From positions 30,283-94,282 of the forward strand of contig JAQYDL010000033.1 in assembly GCA_028724165.1 (NCBI GenBank): a DNA stretch of 64,000 nt, written 5' to 3'. Shown piece by piece: positions 3,357 to 56,952 of the stretch (positions are counted from its first letter, which is position 1; every line of letters starts with the position of its first letter). Made by a program: the position numbers and the translations under genes. Below the pieces are notes generated by a model, which saw only the letters and a program-made list of their open reading frames with translations, did no database searches and had not been told where the DNA came from. The stretch is from Prevotellaceae bacterium. Its GTDB lineage: Bacteria; Bacteroidota; Bacteroidia; Bacteroidales; Bacteroidaceae.

Positions 3357-3500
3357 AGAGTTTTTGTGAGTTGATGCATATTTGCTTATTGGGAAGCCGA
3401 AAAAATACAAGCCATATATTTTGAAATAAGTGCCTTGTATTTTAAAATATATGGCTTGTATTTTTTGCGATTTCCCTTGTCTTTCGAACTCTTTGATATT
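3357..3500 (-). repeat. Composite palindromic intergenic element, copy 1 (units 3400-3466, arms on both sides)
   Basis: Units are aaaaaatacaagccatatatttt / gaaataagtgccttgtatttt / aaaatatatggcttgtatttttt. The left arm is tttttagagtttttgtgagttgatgc... The right arm is degenerate (gcgatttcccttgtctttcgaactctttg). Confidence 0.85.
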
Positions 3501-3705: not shown

Positions 3706-4641
3706 ATGGTTGATAACGACAGAGGGCAGAGCCTGATGAGTAAATACGTGTGGGTGATTGAAACCATTTTTCGTGCCGGAAAGATTTCTTTCAGAGAGTT
3801 GAACGAGAAGTGGCTCAACGCAGACATTTCACGGGGTGTGGACATTCCGAAACGCACTTTCGACAATTGGCGCTGCGCCATTTGGGACGTTTTCGGCATT
3901 GAAATAGCCAACGAAAACCGTGGCGAATACCGATATTACCTTTCCAACGCAGAAGACATAAGCAAAAACGGTATGCGTTCGTGGCTTTACAACTCTTTTT
4001 GCGTTAGCAACACATTAGCCAACAGTCAGAGCATAAAAGATCGCATAGTTTTGGAATACGTTCCCTCGGGTCAGGAATATCTGCAGCCCATTGTTGAAGC
4101 CATGAAAGAGAATCGCGTCCTAAATATCACGTATCACAGTTATTGGAAAGACGAGGAGAACAATTTCGACGTGCAACCTTTCTGTATAAAACTGTTCAGA
4201 CAGCGGTGGTATCTGGTTGCACGAAGCACCTATTCATATTATTATGACCAAGGACCGAGAATTTATGCTCTCGACCGCATTCACAACCTCCACACCAAGG
4301 AAGAAAAGTTCGAATTGCCCAAAGGATGGAATGCAAAGGACTTCTTTGCCGGATGTTTCGGCATTGTTGCGGAACAATCGGTAAGCATTCAGCCCGTAAA
4401 GCTTAAAGTTTCGGCGGGACAGGCTAATTATATTCGCAATTTGCGGCTCCACGAATCGCAGCAAGAGGTTGAGCGCAACGAGGAATACAGCATATTCACA
4501 TATTTTCTGCGTCCCTGTTACGATTTTATTCAGGAAATTCTTTGGAACGGGGAAGACGTTGAAGTTATGGAGCCTTTATGGCTTCGCAAGGCGGTATCGG
4601 ATAAAATAAAAAGGATGTGGAATAAATACAAAGAGGATTAA
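3706..4641 (+). CDS. WYL-domain transcriptional regulator (wHTH-WYL-WCX architecture)
   Basis: The N-terminal part looks like a winged HTH (VIETIFRAGKISFRELNEKW). The central part has the WYL signature (ITYHSYWKD...FDVQPFCIKLFRQRWYLVARS). An alternative start at MSKY is at 3736. Confidence 0.85.
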   Translation: MVDNDRGQSLMSKYVWVIETIFRAGKISFRELNEKWLNADISRGVDIPKRTFDNWRCAIWDVFGIEIANENRGEYRYYLSNAEDISKNGMRSWLYNSFCVSNTLANSQSIKDRIVLEYVPSGQEYLQPIVEAMKENRVLNITYHSYWKDEENNFDVQPFCIKLFRQRWYLVARSTYSYYYDQGPRIYALDRIHNLHTKEEKFELPKGWNAKDFFAGCFGIVAEQSVSIQPVKLKVSAGQANYIRNLRLHESQQEVERNEEYSIFTYFLRPCYDFIQEILWNGEDVEVMEPLWLRKAVSDKIKRMWNKYKED

Positions 4642-5804: not shown

Positions 5805-5920
5805 TCTTAAAAACAACTACTTATAATCGCGAAAAATACAAGGCACTTATTTTAAAATAAGTGCCTTGTGTTTTAAAATATATGGCTTGTATTTTTTACA
5901 ACAAGCCATGTGTGTTTTTT
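5805..5920 (+). repeat. Composite palindromic intergenic element, copy 2
   Basis: gaaaaatacaaggcacttatttt / aaaataagtgccttgtgtttt / aaaatatatggcttgtatttttt / acaacaagccatgtgtgtttttt. The left flank is atypical (cttaaaaacaactacttat). Confidence 0.85.
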
Positions 5921-10060: not shown

Positions 10061-10723
10061 ATGAAAATATCAGAAATCAAAAGCGAACTGCTATCAACAT
10101 TAAAGCCATACGTCTCGAGCCAAGGCTTCAAAGTAAACAAAACACAGTTTTGTCTTAAAAGAGATGACGAAAACAATGAATGCCAATTCTCTTTTGACTA
10201 CAACTCGTGGGGTGATGAAATTCACATATTCCCTTATGTTCAAATAAGAAACAAAAAGATTCATTCCATTTGCGAAACCTGCGATTTTCATCTTAACTAT
10301 ACGGCATTCATAAACCTTTTGGTGCTTAAAAAGATTTACGACGGAACTTTTACAGAGGACACAAAATGGAAAATGCAGTATGACAGACAGGACAGGTTCG
10401 TTATTTTTGACAACAGCGATATGGAAAAAGCCAAAGCAGAGCTTATAAAACTATTGCCTATGGGACTGAAATATTTCCATGACCATGACGACATTTACGC
10501 CATAGACAAAATGTATAACACGCCCCCTTTGAACAAACAAAATCCCAACAGCTCCGGTTTTGACACCCAATGTGTCATAGGCTTAATCTCTGCAAAATTG
10601 GCACACAACGGCAATTATGAGCAAATCAGCAGTTTATACTCAAGCCTCATACAGTCAGAAGACGTGCTGCAAGACACAAGAAACAAGTTTGAACGCATTA
10701 AAAATTTAATCGAAACGCTATAA
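10061..10723 (+). CDS. Hypothetical protein, AT-rich orphan (possibly immunity-protein-like/DUF4304-like)
   Basis: 220-aa ORF that is visibly more AT-rich than its neighbours. It has no signal peptide or TM segment. The N-terminal pattern L..LKPYV.S.GFKVNK..F.LKR resembles small cytoplasmic immunity-type proteins. The family call is tentative. Confidence 0.6.
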   Translation: MKISEIKSELLSTLKPYVSSQGFKVNKTQFCLKRDDENNECQFSFDYNSWGDEIHIFPYVQIRNKKIHSICETCDFHLNYTAFINLLVLKKIYDGTFTEDTKWKMQYDRQDRFVIFDNSDMEKAKAELIKLLPMGLKYFHDHDDIYAIDKMYNTPPLNKQNPNSSGFDTQCVIGLISAKLAHNGNYEQISSLYSSLIQSEDVLQDTRNKFERIKNLIETL

Positions 10724-10967
10724 GCAACCGCAAAAAGGATTCCGCAGGCTTTAATAACCGCCTACGGACTTTTTCAGCATTTTTTGCGGATTTCCCTTCC
10801 TGCTTTTTACGCTACAAGTCCGTCGGGAAAGCCCGCCTTGTGCTTCAGACGGAAATTTCACAAAATATAACCTGCCGCTTTTTTGAGATAACAATTACCG
10901 AGTGTCAAGCCTTCGGACGCAGGTATGCACCGGCAGTAAAATTCACAGGAATTGCGAGAAAAACAAT

Positions 10968-11128
10968 GAGGGTTTGTGAGGGCATTTCGCCTCACCGGAA
11001 AAAGCATAAGGCACTTCGCAAAAAACATAAGCCATATATTTTAAAATACAAGGCACTTATTTTAAAATAAGTGCCTTGTATTTTTCAGTTTTCCAAGAAG
11101 CTGATTAACAGCAACTCACAAAAGCCCT
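10968..11128 (-). repeat. Composite palindromic intergenic element, copy 3 (with inverted arms)
   Basis: Units are at 10998-11085. The left end gagggtttgtgag (10968-10980) is inverted relative to the right end ctcacaaaagccct (11115-11128). Confidence 0.85.
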
Positions 11129-11156
11129 AAAAAAGCCCCTCCCCGTCTCGTTTTTT

Positions 11157-11576
11157 TGCTCGTAAAACACCACGTATTCTTCGCCAAACACACTTTGTTA
11201 CTTGCCAAACAACATTCATTTCTTACCAAACAGACTTAATCCCTCGCAAAACCACATTTTTCAATTATTTACAAAACTACATTCCCCGCAACTCCATCTT
11301 TACCACTCATAATACAGCATTTTTAATTCAACAAACTACATTTACCCAATATCATACTACATTCACCCCTTACACAACTACCTTTATCTATCACAAAGAA
11401 ATATCTATACTTTACCAAACACAATACAACCATTATCCAACAACCCTTACCCATTACGAAACCCACTTCGTCCCACACCCAACTACATTCATCCCTTAAC
11501 CAACTACATTCCTCCTTTACACAACTACCTTTATCCCTTACACAACTACCTTTATCCCTTAACAAACAGACTGCAT
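11157..11576. repeat. Tandem array of twenty 21-nt units, G-depleted on the + strand
   Basis: Hand alignment places a unit every 21 nt from 11157 to 11556 with no indel. Examples are cccttacacaactacctttat (11367 and 11535; 11514 differs at one base), cccttaaccaactacattcct, cccacacccaactacattcat and tacttgccaaacaacattcat. There are about 14 G in 420 nt. Confidence 0.9.
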
Positions 11577-11611
11577 AGTCAACCATTTTCTTCAAAAGGA
11601 CTATGGGCAAC

Positions 11612-11649
11612 AAAAAAATCGGGGCGACATCGCTAAATGCCGTCCCGAT
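11612..11649 (-). terminator. groEL rho-independent terminator
   Basis: The minus strand reads atcgggacggcat-ttagcg-atgtcgccccgat followed by ttttttt, 32 nt after the groEL stop. Confidence 0.75.
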
Positions 11650-11680
11650 TAAAATTATGAAGTTTTTATCCTTTTCGGAA

Positions 11681-13312
11681 TTACATCATGCCGCCGCCCA
11701 TTCCGGGATTAGGCATAGGAGCAGGGGTATCCTCCTTCTTATCGCAGATTACGCATTCGGTAGTCAGGAACATGCCGGCAACAGATGCCGCATTTTCAAG
11801 AGCAACACGGGTAACCTTAGCAGGATCTACGACACCCTGTTCACGCAAATCGCCATACTTCTCAGTCTTAGCGTTGAAGCCGAAGTTTCCTTCGCCCTCG
11901 CGAACCTTGTTAACCACAACAGCACCCTCAATGCCCGCATTGGAGCAAATCTGACGCAAAGGCTCTTCGATAGCACGGCGAACAATTGCAATACCGGTAG
12001 TTTCGTCAGCGTTATCACCGGTCATGCCGTCAAGAGCTTTCTGTGCGCGGATGTAAGCAACGCCGCCGCCGGTTACGATACCCTCTTCAATTGCAGCACG
12101 TGTAGCGCAAAGAGCATCGTCGCAACGGTCTTTCTTTTCTTTCTGCTCTGTTTCGGAAGCTGCACCTACCTCGAGAACGCAAACGCCACCCGAAAGTTTT
12201 GCAAGACGTTCCTGAAGTTTCTCCTTGTCGTAGGTAGAAGTAGTATTTTCTATCTCGTTCTTCAGCTGACCTATGCGATCCTGTATGTTTTGTTTGTCGC
12301 CGCCGCCGTTAACAATAGTAGTGTTGTCCTTAGTAACGGTAACTTTCTCGGCAGAACCAAGCATTTCAATTGTAGCCTGCTCAAGTTTCAAACCTTTATC
12401 CTCGCTGATTACAACGCCACCTGTAAGAATTGCAATATCTTCGAGCATTGCTTTACGACGATCACCAAATCCCGGAGCTTTTATAGCACAAATCTTAAGC
12501 TGAGCACGGAGACGGTTAACAACCAAAGTAGTCAATGCTTCAGAATCCACATCTTCTGCAATAACAAGCAAAGGACGACCGCTCTGAACCGCGCTGTTCA
12601 AAATGGGAAGGAAGTCCTTAAGGTTGGAAATCTTCTTGTCGTAAATAAGAATGTAAGGTTTCTCCATTACACACTCCATTTTCTCCGGCTCTGTGATAAA
12701 GTAAGGAGAAAGATAGCCACGGTCGAACTGCATTCCCTCTACGGTTTTCAAAACAGTGTCGCGACCTTTTGCATCTTCAATTGTAATTACGCCGTTAACG
12801 CTTACGGCACGCATACCGTCAGCAATGAGTTTACCGATTTCAGGATCATTGTTACCGGAAATAGTAGCTACCTGTTCGATTTTCTCATAACTGTTTTCTA
12901 TTTTCTCGGCCTGGCTCTTGATTTCTTCCACAACTTTTGCCACAGCCTTGTCAATGCCTCGTTTAATATCGAGAGGATTTGCACCGGCTGCCACATTCTT
13001 CATTCCTTCTGTAAGAATAGCCTGTGTCAAAACCGTTGCGGTGGTTGTTCCGTCGCCTGCATCGTCGCCGGTTTTGCTTGCCACGCTTTTCACGAGCTGT
13101 GCGCCGGCATTCTTAAAGGAATCTTCGAGTTCTATTTCCTTTGCCACGGTAACACCGTCCTTTGTGATACGGGGAGCACCGAATTTCTTGTCTATTACAA
13201 CGTTTCTGCCCTTAGGACCAAGGGTTGTCTTTACTGCGTTTGCCAATGCGTCGGCACCTTCTTTAAGGAGTTCGCGTGCCTCAACGTTATATCTTACATC
13301 TTTAGCTGCCAT
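11681..13312 (-). CDS. groL: Chaperonin GroEL
   Basis: 543 aa: [13 protein letters not shown]...[11 protein letters not shown]...GGGVAY... with a C-terminal GMGGGMM tail. Confidence 0.99.
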
Positions 13313-13342: not shown

Positions 13343-13615
13343 TTACGCCAATATTGCGAGAACATCGCTCTGACGCATGATGAGGTATTTCTCTTCGCCT
13401 ACCTCTATTTCGGTACCTGCATATTTGCCGAAGAGTACAGTGTCGCCGGCTTTCAGAACCATTTTTTCGTCTTTCGTACCTTCGCCTACTGCTACTACTT
13501 CACCTTTCAAAGGTTTCTCTTTTGCCGTGTCGGGAATTATGATACCTGCCACTGTTTTTTCCTCTGCTTTTGCAGGATTAATGAGAACCCTGTCTGCTAA
13601 CGGTTTAATGTTCAT
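13343..13615 (-). CDS. groES: Co-chaperonin GroES
   Basis: 90 aa: [12 protein letters not shown]...[19 protein letters not shown]. It lies 30 nt upstream of groEL. Confidence 0.98.
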
Positions 13616-13884: not shown

Positions 13885-16041
13885 TTATTCCTTTACCACT
13901 TTCCAAGCAGCTTTTCCTTTATATGTTGTTTTTTCCGACTTATATCCGGGGGCAACGTAATTGGTATGTTCGCCATCGGCATCATTATCGGCCGGATTGA
14001 ATCCCACAAAAATTCCGCCATAAACATTAATGGAGCAAACCGAAGTGGTTCCATCTTTTCTATTAAGCAGATATTTCGGATTTGCAGCCTCGAATACTCC
14101 TCCGTATATATTGCAAACGGAATGAAGTTTACCGTCATTGCTGTCCACATATATACATGCATTTGGTTTTCCGTTTACATCGAGTCCGGTATAGAAGTAT
14201 CCGCTGTAAATATTAGCAGTACCTGAATTAACGAAAACGGCATTGTTTACGATACTACCTTCACCTCCGTTAACCTCTACATTGCCAAAGATATTCAGCA
14301 CACCCTTTTCGGCTGTCAATGCACATGTTCCGATTTGTGTTGAAGTATTATTGCTTGCGCCGATAATCTTTCCGTTACCATATACATCAAGTTGTCCGCC
14401 TTTTACAACCTTTATTGCAGAAATTCTGTTTTGGGTTGATTTCAATTCCGCGCCTTTTTCCACGGTGAGGGTTGCTTTTTTGCCCAACGTGGTGTACTTG
14501 TTTACTTCCACATTACTGCTTACCACGATGTTATTCCCCGTTGTTTTGAAAGCATTTAGCAAATCGTCATTAGTTGCAGCCACTGCGTCTGCTTTCTTCA
14601 CCGTCCAGGCTTCCTTACCATTGTAAGTTGTCTTTACAGATACGTAACCGGGAGCAACGAAATTGGTGTGTTCGCCCTCGGCATAGTTGTCGGCAGGATT
14701 GAAATTGACAAATGTTCCGCCGGTTACTATAATCTTTGCCGTACCTGCTTTTCTGTTTGCATCATAACAGTTGAGCACGAACTCATCTTCCTTGCCGACT
14801 TGTGAATACTTCTGTTGAACTTCAAAAACTCCGCCTTCTATTTCGGCAGTACCCTCATATACATACACTGCATGGATGTTGCCGTTATAGTGTCCGCCTT
14901 TTATCACAAGGTGACCGCCGTCCTGCACGTCAACCGGGAAGCAGTCGTTCTCTTTTGCTATCACGTCGCCCTCACCTTCGAGAACGAGCGTTCCGCCTTG
15001 GACACTGAACAAGGACCACTGGTATTTGCTTTCATCCCAAAGGTCGTTGTTGTTCTTCAGTGCCTTTCCGTTCAGATTAGCCACGAGACTTTTTCCCTGA
15101 GGTACGATTACATTAGACGTGAAGTCCATACCTTCGCCGACTTTAATCATACCACCGTTTTTGGCAGCTGCCTTAAATTCGTCGAAAGAGTTTATTTCGG
15201 TTTTCTCTATAGTGCCCGTATAACCCATGTAAATTGGCGGCATTACAATCCAGTCGCATCTCTTTACGGTGTTCTCGGCTTCGCTCGAAAGGCTGTCCAC
15301 TACAGTTCCGTTGTTCTTTATATATATTGTACATCCATTGTACACACCAACCGGAACAGGCATGTAAAAATGTATTTCCTTTGTATCGGAGGTAAGTTCG
15401 AATTTGAAAGAAACTTCGTCAGCCACGTTTTCTTTTGCCGAAACATAGGGATTGCTCTTGTCGGTAGCGTCTACTTCGAAATCGCCACTGACGCCGCTGT
15501 TCATTTTCACCGTAAATTCATCGATATATGCCGGAACTTCAACATCCCATTCTATTACGCCGCCCACATGACGGAAAAGGAATTGATGTTCATTCTTTTC
15601 GAAATAAGCAACCATGGGATCGCTCACGCTCATACTGTCTTTGTTGTAATCGGTATTGTAGTTTTTGTAAACGTTCGGGTAGCTAACCGTCAGTTTTCCG
15701 TCGGCATAGCTTTTTGCTGCCTTAACGGGGAAAACTGCCACGTCGGTGGGTTTGCCACCTACCGAACTGCCGTAATTCGCCACGTCGGTGCCTGCACCGC
15801 CTACCATTTTCAATGTGCCGAACCCTACAGACTCGCTGCCTTTGGTGAGATAAGCGGCAATATCATCGCCTTGCTCCCATTTGAATGCGCCGTGCGAGTC
15901 GCTATAAGAGCGAGACGCCACGCCTTTTTCCACTACGGCGGAATATTCGCCGTTTTGTTTTGCCAGAAACTGCTCGTCCTGGCTGCAACCTGCCAATGCT
16001 GCAACTCCAAGTCCTATCAGGACTACATTCAGTTTGTTCAT
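13885..16041 (-). CDS. Cell-surface lipoprotein: fimbrillin-like N-terminal region plus two duplicated beta-helix-like modules
   Basis: Lipobox LAGCSQ. The N-terminal ~270 aa resemble Bacteroidales fimbrillin-like proteins (DPMVAYF...FLFRHVGGVIEW). Two ~200-aa modules end in near-identical tails: FNPADNYAEGEHTNFVAPGYVSVKTTYNGKEAWTVKK and FNPADNDADGEHTNYVAPGYKSEKTTYKGKAAWKVVKE. Confidence 0.8.
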   Translation of the reverse strand: MNKLNVVLIGLGVAALAGCSQDEQFLAKQNGEYSAVVEKGVASRSYSDSHGAFKWEQGDDIAAYLTKGSESVGFGTLKMVGGAGTDVANYGSSVGGKPTDVAVFPVKAAKSYADGKLTVSYPNVYKNYNTDYNKDSMSVSDPMVAYFEKNEHQFLFRHVGGVIEWDVEVPAYIDEFTVKMNSGVSGDFEVDATDKSNPYVSAKENVADEVSFKFELTSDTKEIHFYMPVPVGVYNGCTIYIKNNGTVVDSLSSEAENTVKRCDWIVMPPIYMGYTGTIEKTEINSFDEFKAAAKNGGMIKVGEGMDFTSNVIVPQGKSLVANLNGKALKNNNDLWDESKYQWSLFSVQGGTLVLEGEGDVIAKENDCFPVDVQDGGHLVIKGGHYNGNIHAVYVYEGTAEIEGGVFEVQQKYSQVGKEDEFVLNCYDANRKAGTAKIIVTGGTFVNFNPADNYAEGEHTNFVAPGYVSVKTTYNGKEAWTVKKADAVAATNDDLLNAFKTTGNNIVVSSNVEVNKYTTLGKKATLTVEKGAELKSTQNRISAIKVVKGGQLDVYGNGKIIGASNNTSTQIGTCALTAEKGVLNIFGNVEVNGGEGSIVNNAVFVNSGTANIYSGYFYTGLDVNGKPNACIYVDSNDGKLHSVCNIYGGVFEAANPKYLLNRKDGTTSVCSINVYGGIFVGFNPADNDADGEHTNYVAPGYKSEKTTYKGKAAWKVVKE

Positions 16042-18068: not shown

Positions 18069-18190
18069 GAAAAAACACATGGCTTATCGCAAAAAATACA
18101 AGCCATATATTTTAAAATACAAGGCACTTATTTTAAAATAAGTGCCTTGTATTTTTCGCGCTGTCAAACATCTGATAAACAGCAACTTAT
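18069..18190 (-). repeat. Composite palindromic intergenic element, copy 4
   Basis: gaaaaaacacatggcttatcgc / aaaaaatacaagccatatatttt / aaaatacaaggcacttatttt / aaaataagtgccttgtattttt, then arm cgcgctgtcaaacatctgataaacagcaactt. Confidence 0.9.
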
Positions 18191-21848: not shown

Positions 21849-21970
21849 GAAAAAACACATGGCTTATCGTAAAAAACATAAGGCACTTATTTTAAAACAA
21901 GTGCCTTGTATTTTAAAATATATGGCTTGTATTTTTTGCCTTTCCAAATGCCTGAAAAACAAGAACCTGC
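21849..21970 (-). repeat. Composite palindromic intergenic element, copy 5
   Basis: gaaaaaacacatggcttatcgt / aaaaaacataaggcacttatttt / aaaacaagtgccttgtatttt / aaaatatatggcttgtatttttt, then arm gcctttccaaatgcctgaaaaacaagaacc. Confidence 0.9.
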
Positions 21971-23380: not shown

Positions 23381-23500
23381 AGTTATTGTTTTCCAGACAT
23401 TTGAAAAGGCGAAAAATATAAGGCACTTATTTCAAAACATAAGGCACATATTTTAAAATATATGCCTTGTATTTTTTACAACAAGCCATGTGTGTTTTTC
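23381..23500 (+). repeat. Composite palindromic intergenic element, copy 6
   Basis: Arm agttattgttttccagacatttgaaaaggcg, then aaaaatataaggcacttatttc / aaaacataaggcacatatttt / aaaatatatgccttgtatttttt / acaacaagccatgtgtgttttt. Confidence 0.9.
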
Positions 23501-26348: not shown

Positions 26349-26470
26349 GAAAAAACACATGGCTTGTTGCGAAAAACATAAGGCATATATTTTAAAATAC
26401 AAGGCACTTATTTTAAAATAAGTGCCTTGTATTTTTTGCCTTTCCAAATCCCTGAACCACAACAACTTAC
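26349..26470 (-). repeat. Composite palindromic intergenic element, copy 7
   Basis: gaaaaaacacatggcttgttgc / gaaaaacataaggcatatatttt / aaaatacaaggcacttatttt / aaaataagtgccttgtatttttt, then arm gcctttccaaatccctgaaccacaacaactt. Confidence 0.9.
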
Positions 26471-33220: not shown

Positions 33221-33340
33221 AAGTTCTTGTGTTTCAGACATTTGAAAAGGTCAAAAATATAAGGCACATATTTTAAAATAAGTGCCTTGTATTTTAAAAT
33301 ACATGGCTTGTATTTTTTGCGATAAGCCATGTGTTTTTTC
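33221..33340 (+). repeat. Composite palindromic intergenic element, copy 8
   Basis: Arm aagttcttgtgtttcagacatttgaaaaggtc, then aaaaatataaggcacatatttt / aaaataagtgccttgtatttt / aaaatacatggcttgtatttttt / gcgataagccatgtgtttttt. Confidence 0.9.
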
Positions 33341-37170: not shown

Positions 37171-37265
37171 GAAAAAACATAAGGCACATATTTTAAAATA
37201 CAAGGCACTTATTTTAAAATAAGTGCCTTGTATTTTTCGGCATTCCAACTGTCTGAAATCCAATA
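37171..37265 (-). repeat. Composite palindromic intergenic element, copy 9 (no fourth unit)
   Basis: gaaaaaacataaggcacatatttt / aaaatacaaggcacttatttt / aaaataagtgccttgtattttt, then arm cggcattccaactgtctgaaatcc. Confidence 0.88.
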
Positions 37266-43989: not shown

Positions 43990-44110
43990 TTTTCAGATGT
44001 TTGAAAACGTCAAAAATACAAGGCATATATTTTAAAATACAAGGCACTTATTTTAAAATATGTGCCTTATGTTTTTTACGATAAGCCATGTGTGTTTTTT
44101 GCACAATACA
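43990..44110 (+). repeat. Composite palindromic intergenic element, copy 10
   Basis: Arm aagttgctgtttttcagatgtttgaaaacgtc, then aaaaatacaaggcatatatttt / aaaatacaaggcacttatttt / aaaatatgtgccttatgtttttt / acgataagccatgtgtgtttttt. Confidence 0.9.
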
Positions 44111-49147: not shown

Positions 49148-49238
49148 TTGTTTTTCAAGCACTTAACACGCTCAAAAATACAAGGCACTTATTTTAAAAC
49201 ATAAGGCACATATTTTAAAATAAGTGCCTTGTATTTTT
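49148..49238 (+). repeat. Composite palindromic intergenic element, copy 11 (no fourth unit)
   Basis: Arm ttgtttttcaagcacttaacacgctc, then aaaaatacaaggcacttatttt / aaaacataaggcacatatttt / aaaataagtgccttgtattttt. Confidence 0.88.
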
Positions 49239-56207: not shown

Positions 56208-56584
56208 CGGCAATCATCCGGTCTGTCGCCGGCGGAAATCAAAAATCCGCAGGAGGAAAGTCCGGGCAACACAGGACAGTCTCCTTCCGAAACGGAAGTT
56301 ATCCGCGAGGGTAAGCAAACTGTAGAAGAAAACAACCGCCCTCCGCAAGGATGGTAAGGGTGAGAAGGCGGGGTAAGAGCCCACCGGGCGCATGGTGATG
56401 TGCGTGCCGTGCAGTCGAGACGTTGAAAGTTCGCGTAAACCGGCGTTTGAGGGTTGTCCGCCCGAAACTTCGTTACGCCGGAGGGTAGAACGATAACGCC
56501 TGCAGGCAACTGCGGGCTTAGATAAATGACAGACGGCGATTCGCGAGAGTCGCGCACAGAACTTGGCTTATAGGATAATTGCCG
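56208..56584 (+). ncRNA. rnpB: RNase P RNA, bacterial type A
   Basis: Conserved regions are GGAGGAAAGTCCGGGC (56251-56266), GGGTGAGAAGGCGGGGTAAGAGCCCACC and ACAGAACTTGGCTTATAGG. The P1 stem pairs cggcaatcatcc (56208-56219) with ggataattgccg (56573-56584). Confidence 0.93.
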
Positions 56585-56593
56585 AACTCAAAT

Positions 56594-56829: not shown

Positions 56830-56952
56830 CAAAAAAACACATGGCTTATCGCGAAAAATACAAGGCACATATTTTAAAATAAGTGCCTTGTATTTTAAAA
56901 TATATGCCTTATATTTTTTGCCTTTTCAAACATCTGAAAAACAACGACTTAT
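56830..56952 (-). repeat. Composite palindromic intergenic element, copy 12
   Basis: aaaaaaacacatggcttatcgc / gaaaaatacaaggcacatatttt / aaaataagtgccttgtatttt / aaaatatatgccttatatttttt, then arm gccttttcaaacatctgaaaaacaacgactt. Confidence 0.9.

Follow-up and report, generated by a model that had tools for sequence, protein, structure and literature searches.

A G-depleted 21-bp tandem array downstream of groEL in a gut Bacteroidales species: probably a non-coding minisatellite

How can a tandem array keep a regular 21-nt phase while its units drift far apart, and is selection on the period needed to explain it? The question is raised by a block of twenty 21-nt units at 11157-11576 in a 64,000-nt stretch of DNA from a Prevotellaceae bacterium, hereafter the window. 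A first-pass annotation, made from the letters alone, noticed the block, argued that its conserved phase implies selection on the period, and offered three readings, i.e. protein-binding sites on one face of the helix, a heptad-repeat coding region and a CA-rich unstructured RNA. Our analysis indicates that the array is probably a species-specific, non-coding 21-bp minisatellite (VNTR) that is neutral or nearly so, with a phase that follows from the way it mutates.

The head-to-tail repetition is well past chance. Autocorrelation reaches 0.52-0.56 at multiples of 21 only (0.55-0.56 at lags 21, 42, 63 and 84, with 0.56 at lag 21), against 0.37 at the next best lag and 0.44 for the highest value among 500 shuffles, which bears out the twenty units counted before. 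Tandem Repeats Finder reports only the best-preserved stretches, 11183-11237 and 11480-11565. A recount also agrees with the earlier description of the units: AAC occupies columns 10-12 in 15 of 20, the units at 11367 and 11535 are identical, and the one at 11514 departs from both by a single base. Conservation is higher at columns 4-6 (TTA), 10-12 (AAC), 17 (T) and 20-21 (AT), and as a whole is barely uneven among columns (chi-square by hand on the column counts, about P = 0.03, a value inflated by shared ancestry). The old units are about 50% alike, and the longest homopolymer run inside the array is at most 5.

Perfect phase without a single indel had been claimed, and this is right for the phase of most units and wrong for the indels. 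A weight-matrix scan placed 17 units at phase 0. It turned out that 11262-11303 holds a compensated +4/-4 register shift over two units, in which a motif copy at phase +4 starts at 11266 and a 17-nt copy follows; all strains share this shift. In the same scan the motif could not be recognised in the unit at 11388, although its length is exactly 21 nt.

No strand is assigned to the array, and its base composition is strongly asymmetric. The + strand is rich in C, A and T (A146 C139 T120 G15 in 420 nt, 3.6% G), so the depletion noticed before is real, and the exact count is 15 G rather than about 14. The surrounding block 11101-11630 has a GC skew down to -0.89. It is the only large block of this kind in the 64-kb window, and is unique there except for one short AT-rich promoter region. 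On the G-rich minus strand, a weak long-loop G-quadruplex candidate with four GGG runs and loops of up to 12-13 nt lies at 11462-11495, in units 14-16 of the part that varies between strains, 3-4 units past the start of variation; it is one of only two or three long-loop candidates in the window.

The array is located in a 957-nt gap between two convergent genes, a gene for a 220-aa protein (10061-10723, + strand) and groEL (543 aa, 11681-13312, - strand), with groES (13343-13615, - strand) behind groEL. Its position downstream of groEL is therefore as first described. The other neighbours of the locus are GH2, GH30 and MatE. Two hairpins bound the region. On the groEL side, the intrinsic-terminator hairpin of groEL (AATCGGGGCGACAT/ATGCCGTCCCGATT, 11617-11650, - strand), with a T-run after it on the minus strand, divides groEL from the array. 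On the far side lies a perfect 21+21-nt palindrome (11043-11084), which belongs to a dispersed repeat family, is terminator-like on both strands and gives a strong 19-bp hairpin with a T-run. The statement that the array begins right after an arm of this repeat is only loosely true, since the palindrome ends at 11084, 72 nt short of the array.

The palindrome family itself was surveyed across the window. Near-perfect palindromes of about 42 nt (AAAATACAAGGCACTTATTTT / AAAATAAGTGCCTTGTATTTT) occur about 14 times, one per roughly 4-5 kb, with 22 arm matches; they are mostly found at gene ends and resemble bidirectional terminators. Copies are located at 3402-3464, 5848-5895, 11043-11084, 18093-18140, 21888-21935, 23413-23462, 26373-26420, 33269-33316, 37174-37221, 44013-44060, 49175-49220 and 56869-56917, and none was found in the 7.6-kb loci of the nearest species. 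Directly left of the copy at 11043-11084, two degenerate direct copies of its 21-nt arm (AAAAAGCATAAGGCACTTCGC and AAAAAACATAAGCCATATATTTT) occupy 10990-11042, where the arm is thus tandemly duplicated. A derivation of the array from an arm of this family was considered and dropped, because the best match (12 of 14, CTTCGCAAAAAACA versus CTTCGCCAAACACA) is what chance is estimated to give after multiple testing. Besides, the window contains a bacterial class A RNase P RNA (56210-56586, + strand, 198 bits), which is its only Rfam match at the gathering threshold, and no tRNA gene in its 64 kb.

The flanks of groESL are themselves variable. Upstream of groES, a 718-aa gene without a Pfam domain (13885-16041, - strand) is present in most strains and is replaced in L001 and L010 by other genes (a 122-aa ORF or a 2256-aa CotH-like protein), which means that the flanks differ between strains on both sides. 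On the array side, the groEL-GH2 segment is replaced relative to the nearest species, with the 220-aa gene standing where that species has GH10. Relatives of the 220-aa protein are 44-73% identical, sit in clusters with Imm11, Imm32 and DUF2750 genes rather than beside groEL, and these clusters are carried on elements with integrase and relaxase genes, so the segment has been exchanged in the array-bearing species. The protein has no Pfam domain. Its AlphaFold model is confident (pLDDT 94, pTM 0.88) and finds no structural match in the PDB (best E = 1). It may represent an undescribed immunity-protein fold. With nothing alike in the PDB, the model gave no link to DNA binding, and this idea was set aside. 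Nor could the neighbour be used to find orthologues of the array: its relatives sit away from groEL and are uninformative on this point, and no array was found near homologues of the gene.

To compare strains, we collected 21 copies of the locus, namely the window, 12 contigs from a GroEL look-up (protein identical or different at one residue) and 8 contigs from a scan for the unit pattern. All 20 retrieved contigs carry the same locus. This GroEL is present in roughly 2600 assemblies. The GroEL look-up is blind to the array, and all 12 of its contigs carry it with at least 12 units. Unit numbers are 12 (one copy), 18 (seven), 19 (six), 20 (five, including the window), 25 (one) and 26 (one), and the array length modulo 21 is 0 in every one of the 21 copies. 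The alleles of 12 and 25 units come from contigs of 2.4-2.7 Mb, hence assembly collapse is not the cause of these extremes. The first-pass annotation had expected neutral slippage to make both unit number and phase vary freely among close strains; the number does so (12-26 units), and the phase does not, as the change is always by whole units.

Variation is confined to one half of the array. Every difference in unit number or order falls within units 09-17 and their variants (11346-11555), in the groEL-proximal half, where other strains have gained or lost whole units, contain hybrid units or have duplicated a 7-unit (147-nt) block. For instance, the hybrid unit CCAATATCATACTACATTCCT of L004 begins as unit 09 and ends as unit 16, and in L010 and L241 the duplicated 7-unit block has near-identical units on its flanks. 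These hybrid units and block duplications are footprints of in-register slippage or unequal recombination. The old, diverged units 00-08 (11157-11345) are stable in copy number, with the same unit order in 21 of 21 strains and 5 segregating sites per 189, and the terminal unit CCCTTAACAAACAGACTGCAT (11556-11576) at the groEL-proximal end is unchanged in every strain.

Point diversity was compared with neutral proxies in the same strains. For the array, pi is 0.0053-0.0056, and for the adjoining flanks it is 0.0040-0.0045, while 4-fold sites of groEL give 0.0127, 4-fold sites of GH2 0.0079 and the left intergenic region 0.0118. The array is thus within about twofold of the proxies, at about half the value of groEL 4-fold sites and similar to GH2 4-fold sites. 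Being near the proxies and equal to its flanks, it is neither strongly constrained nor hypermutable; the roughly halved diversity relative to 4-fold sites is a weak hint of constraint (roughly P = 0.05). A deficit of indels in the array was considered as a sign of selection on phase and set aside, since the small indels in the flanks all lie within A/T homopolymer runs of 5-7, which makes the comparison unfair.

The array is restricted to one species. The nearest sampled lineage shares 99% amino-acid identity in GroEL, with 84% identity at the nucleotide level and 55% at third positions, values which indicate a different species. It has no array. Its 504-nt gap between groEL and GH10 contains other hairpin repeats, and only the region of the groEL terminator (11617-11650) can be aligned with the intergenic gap of the window. 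In this gap (L102-L108; 4633-5136 in L102), a GC-rich hairpin recurs several times (GGGGCGTATTGCATACGCCCC and variants) and a 21-nt unit (TTTTTCCTACGTCCTATGTAG) stands twice. Together with the GH10 gene in the place of the 220-aa gene, this suggests that the close relative has a repeat family of its own and that the region downstream of groEL is a hot spot of replacement. No comparable array was seen at the groEL loci of other Bacteroidales species among the 80 listed. A GroEL homologue search gave at least 120 matches, those listed being about 99-100% identical, and only P0136 and P0103 were informative; in a contig scan with GroEL, the nearest of the matches listed are 86-88% identical (Prevotellamassilia sp. 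and Bacteroidaceae MAGs), and the species of the window is not among them.

A second locus of the unit was found neither in the 64-kb window, nor in the metagenome-wide pattern scan, in which 8 of 8 true matches are the array locus, nor in viral contigs, where the specific two-unit pattern gave chance matches in coding DNA only. A looser skeleton for the viral contigs (TTA-N3-AAC three times at 21-nt spacing) was too permissive and was abandoned, with unrelated 21/63-nt repeats among the matches listed. Several other Bacteroidaceae and Prevotellaceae also carry unrelated tandem repeats (units of 15-22 nt, at most 6.4 copies) immediately before or after groES-groEL, at 6524-6613 in L030, 3221-3361 in L035, 2360-2531 in L040, 3050-3119 in L056, and 3822-3992 and 6917-6997 in L059; the 22-nt array of L040 begins about 230 nt past groEL. 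As unrelated repeats of 21-22 nt occur near groESL in several other Bacteroidaceae, they seem to be a common background feature.

The lack of G is the property that simple decay does not explain. In a rough parsimony count over 40 distinct units with about 114 changes, 13 changes were to G, 31 to A, 41 to C and 29 to T. Changes from A to G (8) are far rarer than the complementary changes from T to C (21), and exchanges between A and C outnumber those between G and T by 38 to 2 (19:1); neutral polymorphism at 4-fold sites of the same strains comprises 21 transitions and 6 transversions. Neutral decay down to about 50% identity should have brought G back into the units; either G is selected against on this strand or some biased process is at work. 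The avoidance of G among diverged units is statistically real and exceeds neutral expectation, whether it reflects compositional bias or constraint, and the first impression that the depletion is out of the ordinary is upheld. Hypermutation by a strand-specific cytosine deaminase was considered as the cause and found no support: as read from the sequence, no context preference is seen at the 15 G that remain (on the minus strand, the C is preceded on its 5' side by A 4 times, by G 6 times and by T 4-5 times).

From the observed anatomy, the whole-unit polymorphism, the recombinant units, the restriction to one species and the lack of a coding signal, we infer a neutral or nearly neutral minisatellite that changes by slippage or recombination. 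The array would grow and shrink through slipped-strand mispairing or unequal homologous recombination between similar units in register, and each event would add or remove whole units. Change of this kind preserves the phase automatically, so no selection on the period is needed and the inference from conserved phase to selection is unnecessary. The groEL-proximal half would consist of young, similar units which still recombine, and the distal half of old units which have decayed too far to misalign and are therefore frozen. No sequence-specific function would be required, and the scarcity of G on the + strand would be a separate feature. There are points against this account. The +4 shift compensated within 42 nt could reflect selection on phase, the avoidance of G goes beyond neutral decay, and the array is present in 12 of 12 strains found by a search blind to it.

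Two alternatives would give the array a product. In the coding reading, it is a heptad-repeat protein-coding region or its pseudogene, read as PLxNY[IL][HY] from the + strand or as DKGSCVR from the minus strand. The frames that suggested this do exist: the minus ORF (11323-11613, 96 aa) is open in all strains, and three of three + frames are open for 83-122 codons on a G-poor strand with few stop codons. However, a nearly G-free strand lacks ATG, GTG, TTG, TAG and TGA, so open + frames without start codons are to be expected, and the longest + strand ORF with a start codon has 36 aa. The minus ORF starts from a TTG that immediately follows the groEL terminator and stops at strain-dependent points, which gives lengths of 40 to 138 aa. 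No third-position pattern was found in any frame; in the minus ORF frame the mean information at codon positions 1/2/3 is 0.89/0.95/0.91 bits (by hand from the column table), and in + frame 0 conservation is blockwise. The minus ORF matches no Pfam family, and the source gene callers place no gene at the array in 10 strains. A phmmer search against 1.84 billion representative proteins returned only the ORF's own sequence and spurious reading frames called across unrelated 21-nt repeats (e.g. reading IRDQGSG or HQKGSCI), i.e. no homologous heptad-repeat protein. We reject the protein-coding reading, which retains next to no probability. In the RNA reading, about 20 single-stranded motifs, CAAAC/ACUAC if read from the + strand or G/U-rich if read from the minus strand, would act as a non-coding decoy or sponge that titrates an RNA-binding protein or small RNAs. 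Hairpins bound the region on both sides, and the + strand RNA would indeed be as unstructured as first proposed if it were transcribed, with a folding energy equal to that of shuffled sequences (-6.8 kcal/mol over 420 nt). Against this, folding of the minus strand is no stronger than in shuffled sequences (z = -1.3), and neither strand has a Bacteroidetes-type promoter (TAnnTTTG with an upstream TTTG) ahead of the array, the sole TAnnTTTG match falling within unit 05 without a -33 element. No Rfam match lies inside the array even at E up to 5, and the array is species-specific and variable in unit number. CsrA and Hfq/Crc, with which the known sponges work, are not known from Bacteroidota, and this also counts against a sponge. 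Altogether a sponge is very unlikely.

The remaining alternatives see the array as DNA to be bound, as mobile DNA or as a signal in a passing transcript. If one protein bound each 21-bp unit, two helical turns would place all copies on the same face, and the array could serve as iterons, a centromere or a nucleation site for a nucleoid protein, with a filament or bent complex. The period kept over 420 bp, the compensated register shift, the conserved columns TTA 4-6, AAC 10-12 and T 17, and the presence in all strains would fit. Nevertheless, in 10 strains the 6 kb to each side of the array contain no gene for Rep, ParB, ParR or another DNA-binding protein, the adjoining 220-aa protein has neither a Pfam domain nor a PDB match, the unevenness of the columns is marginal (about P = 0.03), unit number varies twofold and relatives lack the array. 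The predicted curvature, calculated with wedge parameters, does not differ from that of column-permuted arrays, so intrinsic curvature was discarded as a special feature. The proposal of same-face binding sites thus found no support in partner genes, columns or curvature, and we consider it improbable. An arrival by transposition, as a minisatellite inside a BrickBuilt-like non-autonomous mobile element (MITE) or as cargo that came with the 220-aa gene, would agree with the replaced groEL-GH2 segment, with the relatives of that gene on mobile elements, and with the closest described precedent in Bacteroidota, which is similar and also lies next to chaperone or stress genes (PMC4596501). However, the array has no terminal inverted repeats or leader/tail structure around it (an inverted-repeat search of 10724-11680 gave the palindrome, the groEL terminator and short chance pairs only), it was found at a single locus in the window and the metagenome scan, and it does not accompany homologues of the 220-aa gene; such an origin is highly unlikely. 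A third possibility takes up the avoidance of G. The + strand could be a Rho-loading pad or transcriptional insulator in which selection acts on composition and not on sequence or unit number: a transcript that escaped the palindromic terminator of the 220-aa gene and ran antisense into groEL would be stopped by Rho at or before the groEL hairpin. Published sequence criteria for rut sites are a C/G ratio above 1 in 78-nt windows, spaced C, and a hairpin within 150 nt (PMC6407284), and the composition of the array satisfies them many times over. The ratio is 5-32 in 78-nt windows across 11197-11586, C is regularly spaced in many windows, a GC-rich hairpin follows within 150 nt, and the + strand RNA is essentially unstructured. 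The C-rich strand is moreover the one antisense to groEL, between convergent genes, and this reading accounts together for the avoidance of G, the free drift of sequence and the tolerated variation in unit number. On the other side, a + strand transcript would have to pass the strong 19-bp palindromic hairpin and its T-run at 11043-11084, a rut site needs about 80 nt and not 250-550, no other convergent gap in the window has such a block, the nearest species does without the array, and the tandem structure is left unexplained. We regard a pad selected for composition as unlikely, if less so than binding sites or a mobile origin. Its fuller form would have selection keep the array G-free as a pad for Rho, or another single-strand-specific factor, that shields the highly expressed groESL operon from antisense transcripts of a recently acquired convergent gene, with sequence and unit number drifting freely; the chance of this is slim.

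Under the minisatellite reading, the array would serve mainly to tell strains apart in a gut Bacteroidales species that is abundant and uncultured, with at least six size alleles in 21 metagenomic strains. It would also be a clean case of perfect repeat phase persisting without selection on the period, and a caution for scans that look at sequence only. If the avoidance of G is due to selection, the array would be a bacterial intergenic element constrained in composition and not in sequence, and such elements escape homology methods. The array is ordinary in kind, and its strand-specific avoidance of G is the one feature of wider interest.

Known systems share parts of this picture. Like the bacterial minisatellites used as VNTR markers in MLVA typing, the array has head-to-tail units in the 10-100-bp range, an intergenic position, whole-unit differences between strains, variant and hybrid units, stable ends and a variable interior. 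It differs from ordinary VNTRs in its more extreme strand composition (GC skew about -0.85), which is kept in units only about 50% alike, and in a long decayed half whose register is still perfect. In plasmid iterons and type II/Ib centromeres (11-22-bp protein-binding repeats), direct repeats likewise follow one another in tandem at nearly a whole number of helical turns, whereas the array is chromosomal, lies between convergent genes with no Rep or partition gene nearby, varies in unit number, and has units far more diverged than those of functional iterons. With rut sites it shares a C-rich, G-poor, unstructured + strand RNA followed by a hairpin within 150 nt, a likeness of sequence criteria; known rut sites are about 70-80 nt long and not tandem. 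Type III toxin-antitoxin RNA arrays of the ToxI kind consist of repeats of about 34-45 nt that are almost identical and immediately precede the gene of an endoribonuclease toxin, while the units here are 21 nt and diverged, with no downstream gene before the terminator on either strand. Eukaryotic hypervariable minisatellites and immunoglobulin switch regions are G-rich, strand-asymmetric tandem arrays whose asymmetry is kept among variant repeats. As in these, it is the non-template strand that is G-rich in the array, relative to the direction in which the highly expressed neighbouring gene is transcribed; in contrast, the array is bacterial, an intrinsic terminator stands between groEL and the array, it has only one weak long-loop G-quadruplex candidate, and R-loops there would be conjectural.

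Among described elements, BrickBuilt, a MITE of Porphyromonas gingivalis, comes nearest. It contains spacer-less, imperfect 23-nt units in 1-22.8 copies, is always intergenic, occurs among other places beside chaperone or stress genes such as clpB and dps, and has a leader and a tail with terminal inverted repeats, 19 elements per genome and units 89-100% alike within an element (PMC4596501). The array has no inverted ends, was found at one locus in the window and the metagenome scan, and has old units about 50% alike. The two come from the same phylum and resemble each other in unit length (23 versus 21 nt), in copy number (1-22.8 versus 12-26) and in their mixture of conserved and variable columns; in kind, no described element is closer to the array than the BrickBuilt minisatellite (PMC4596501).
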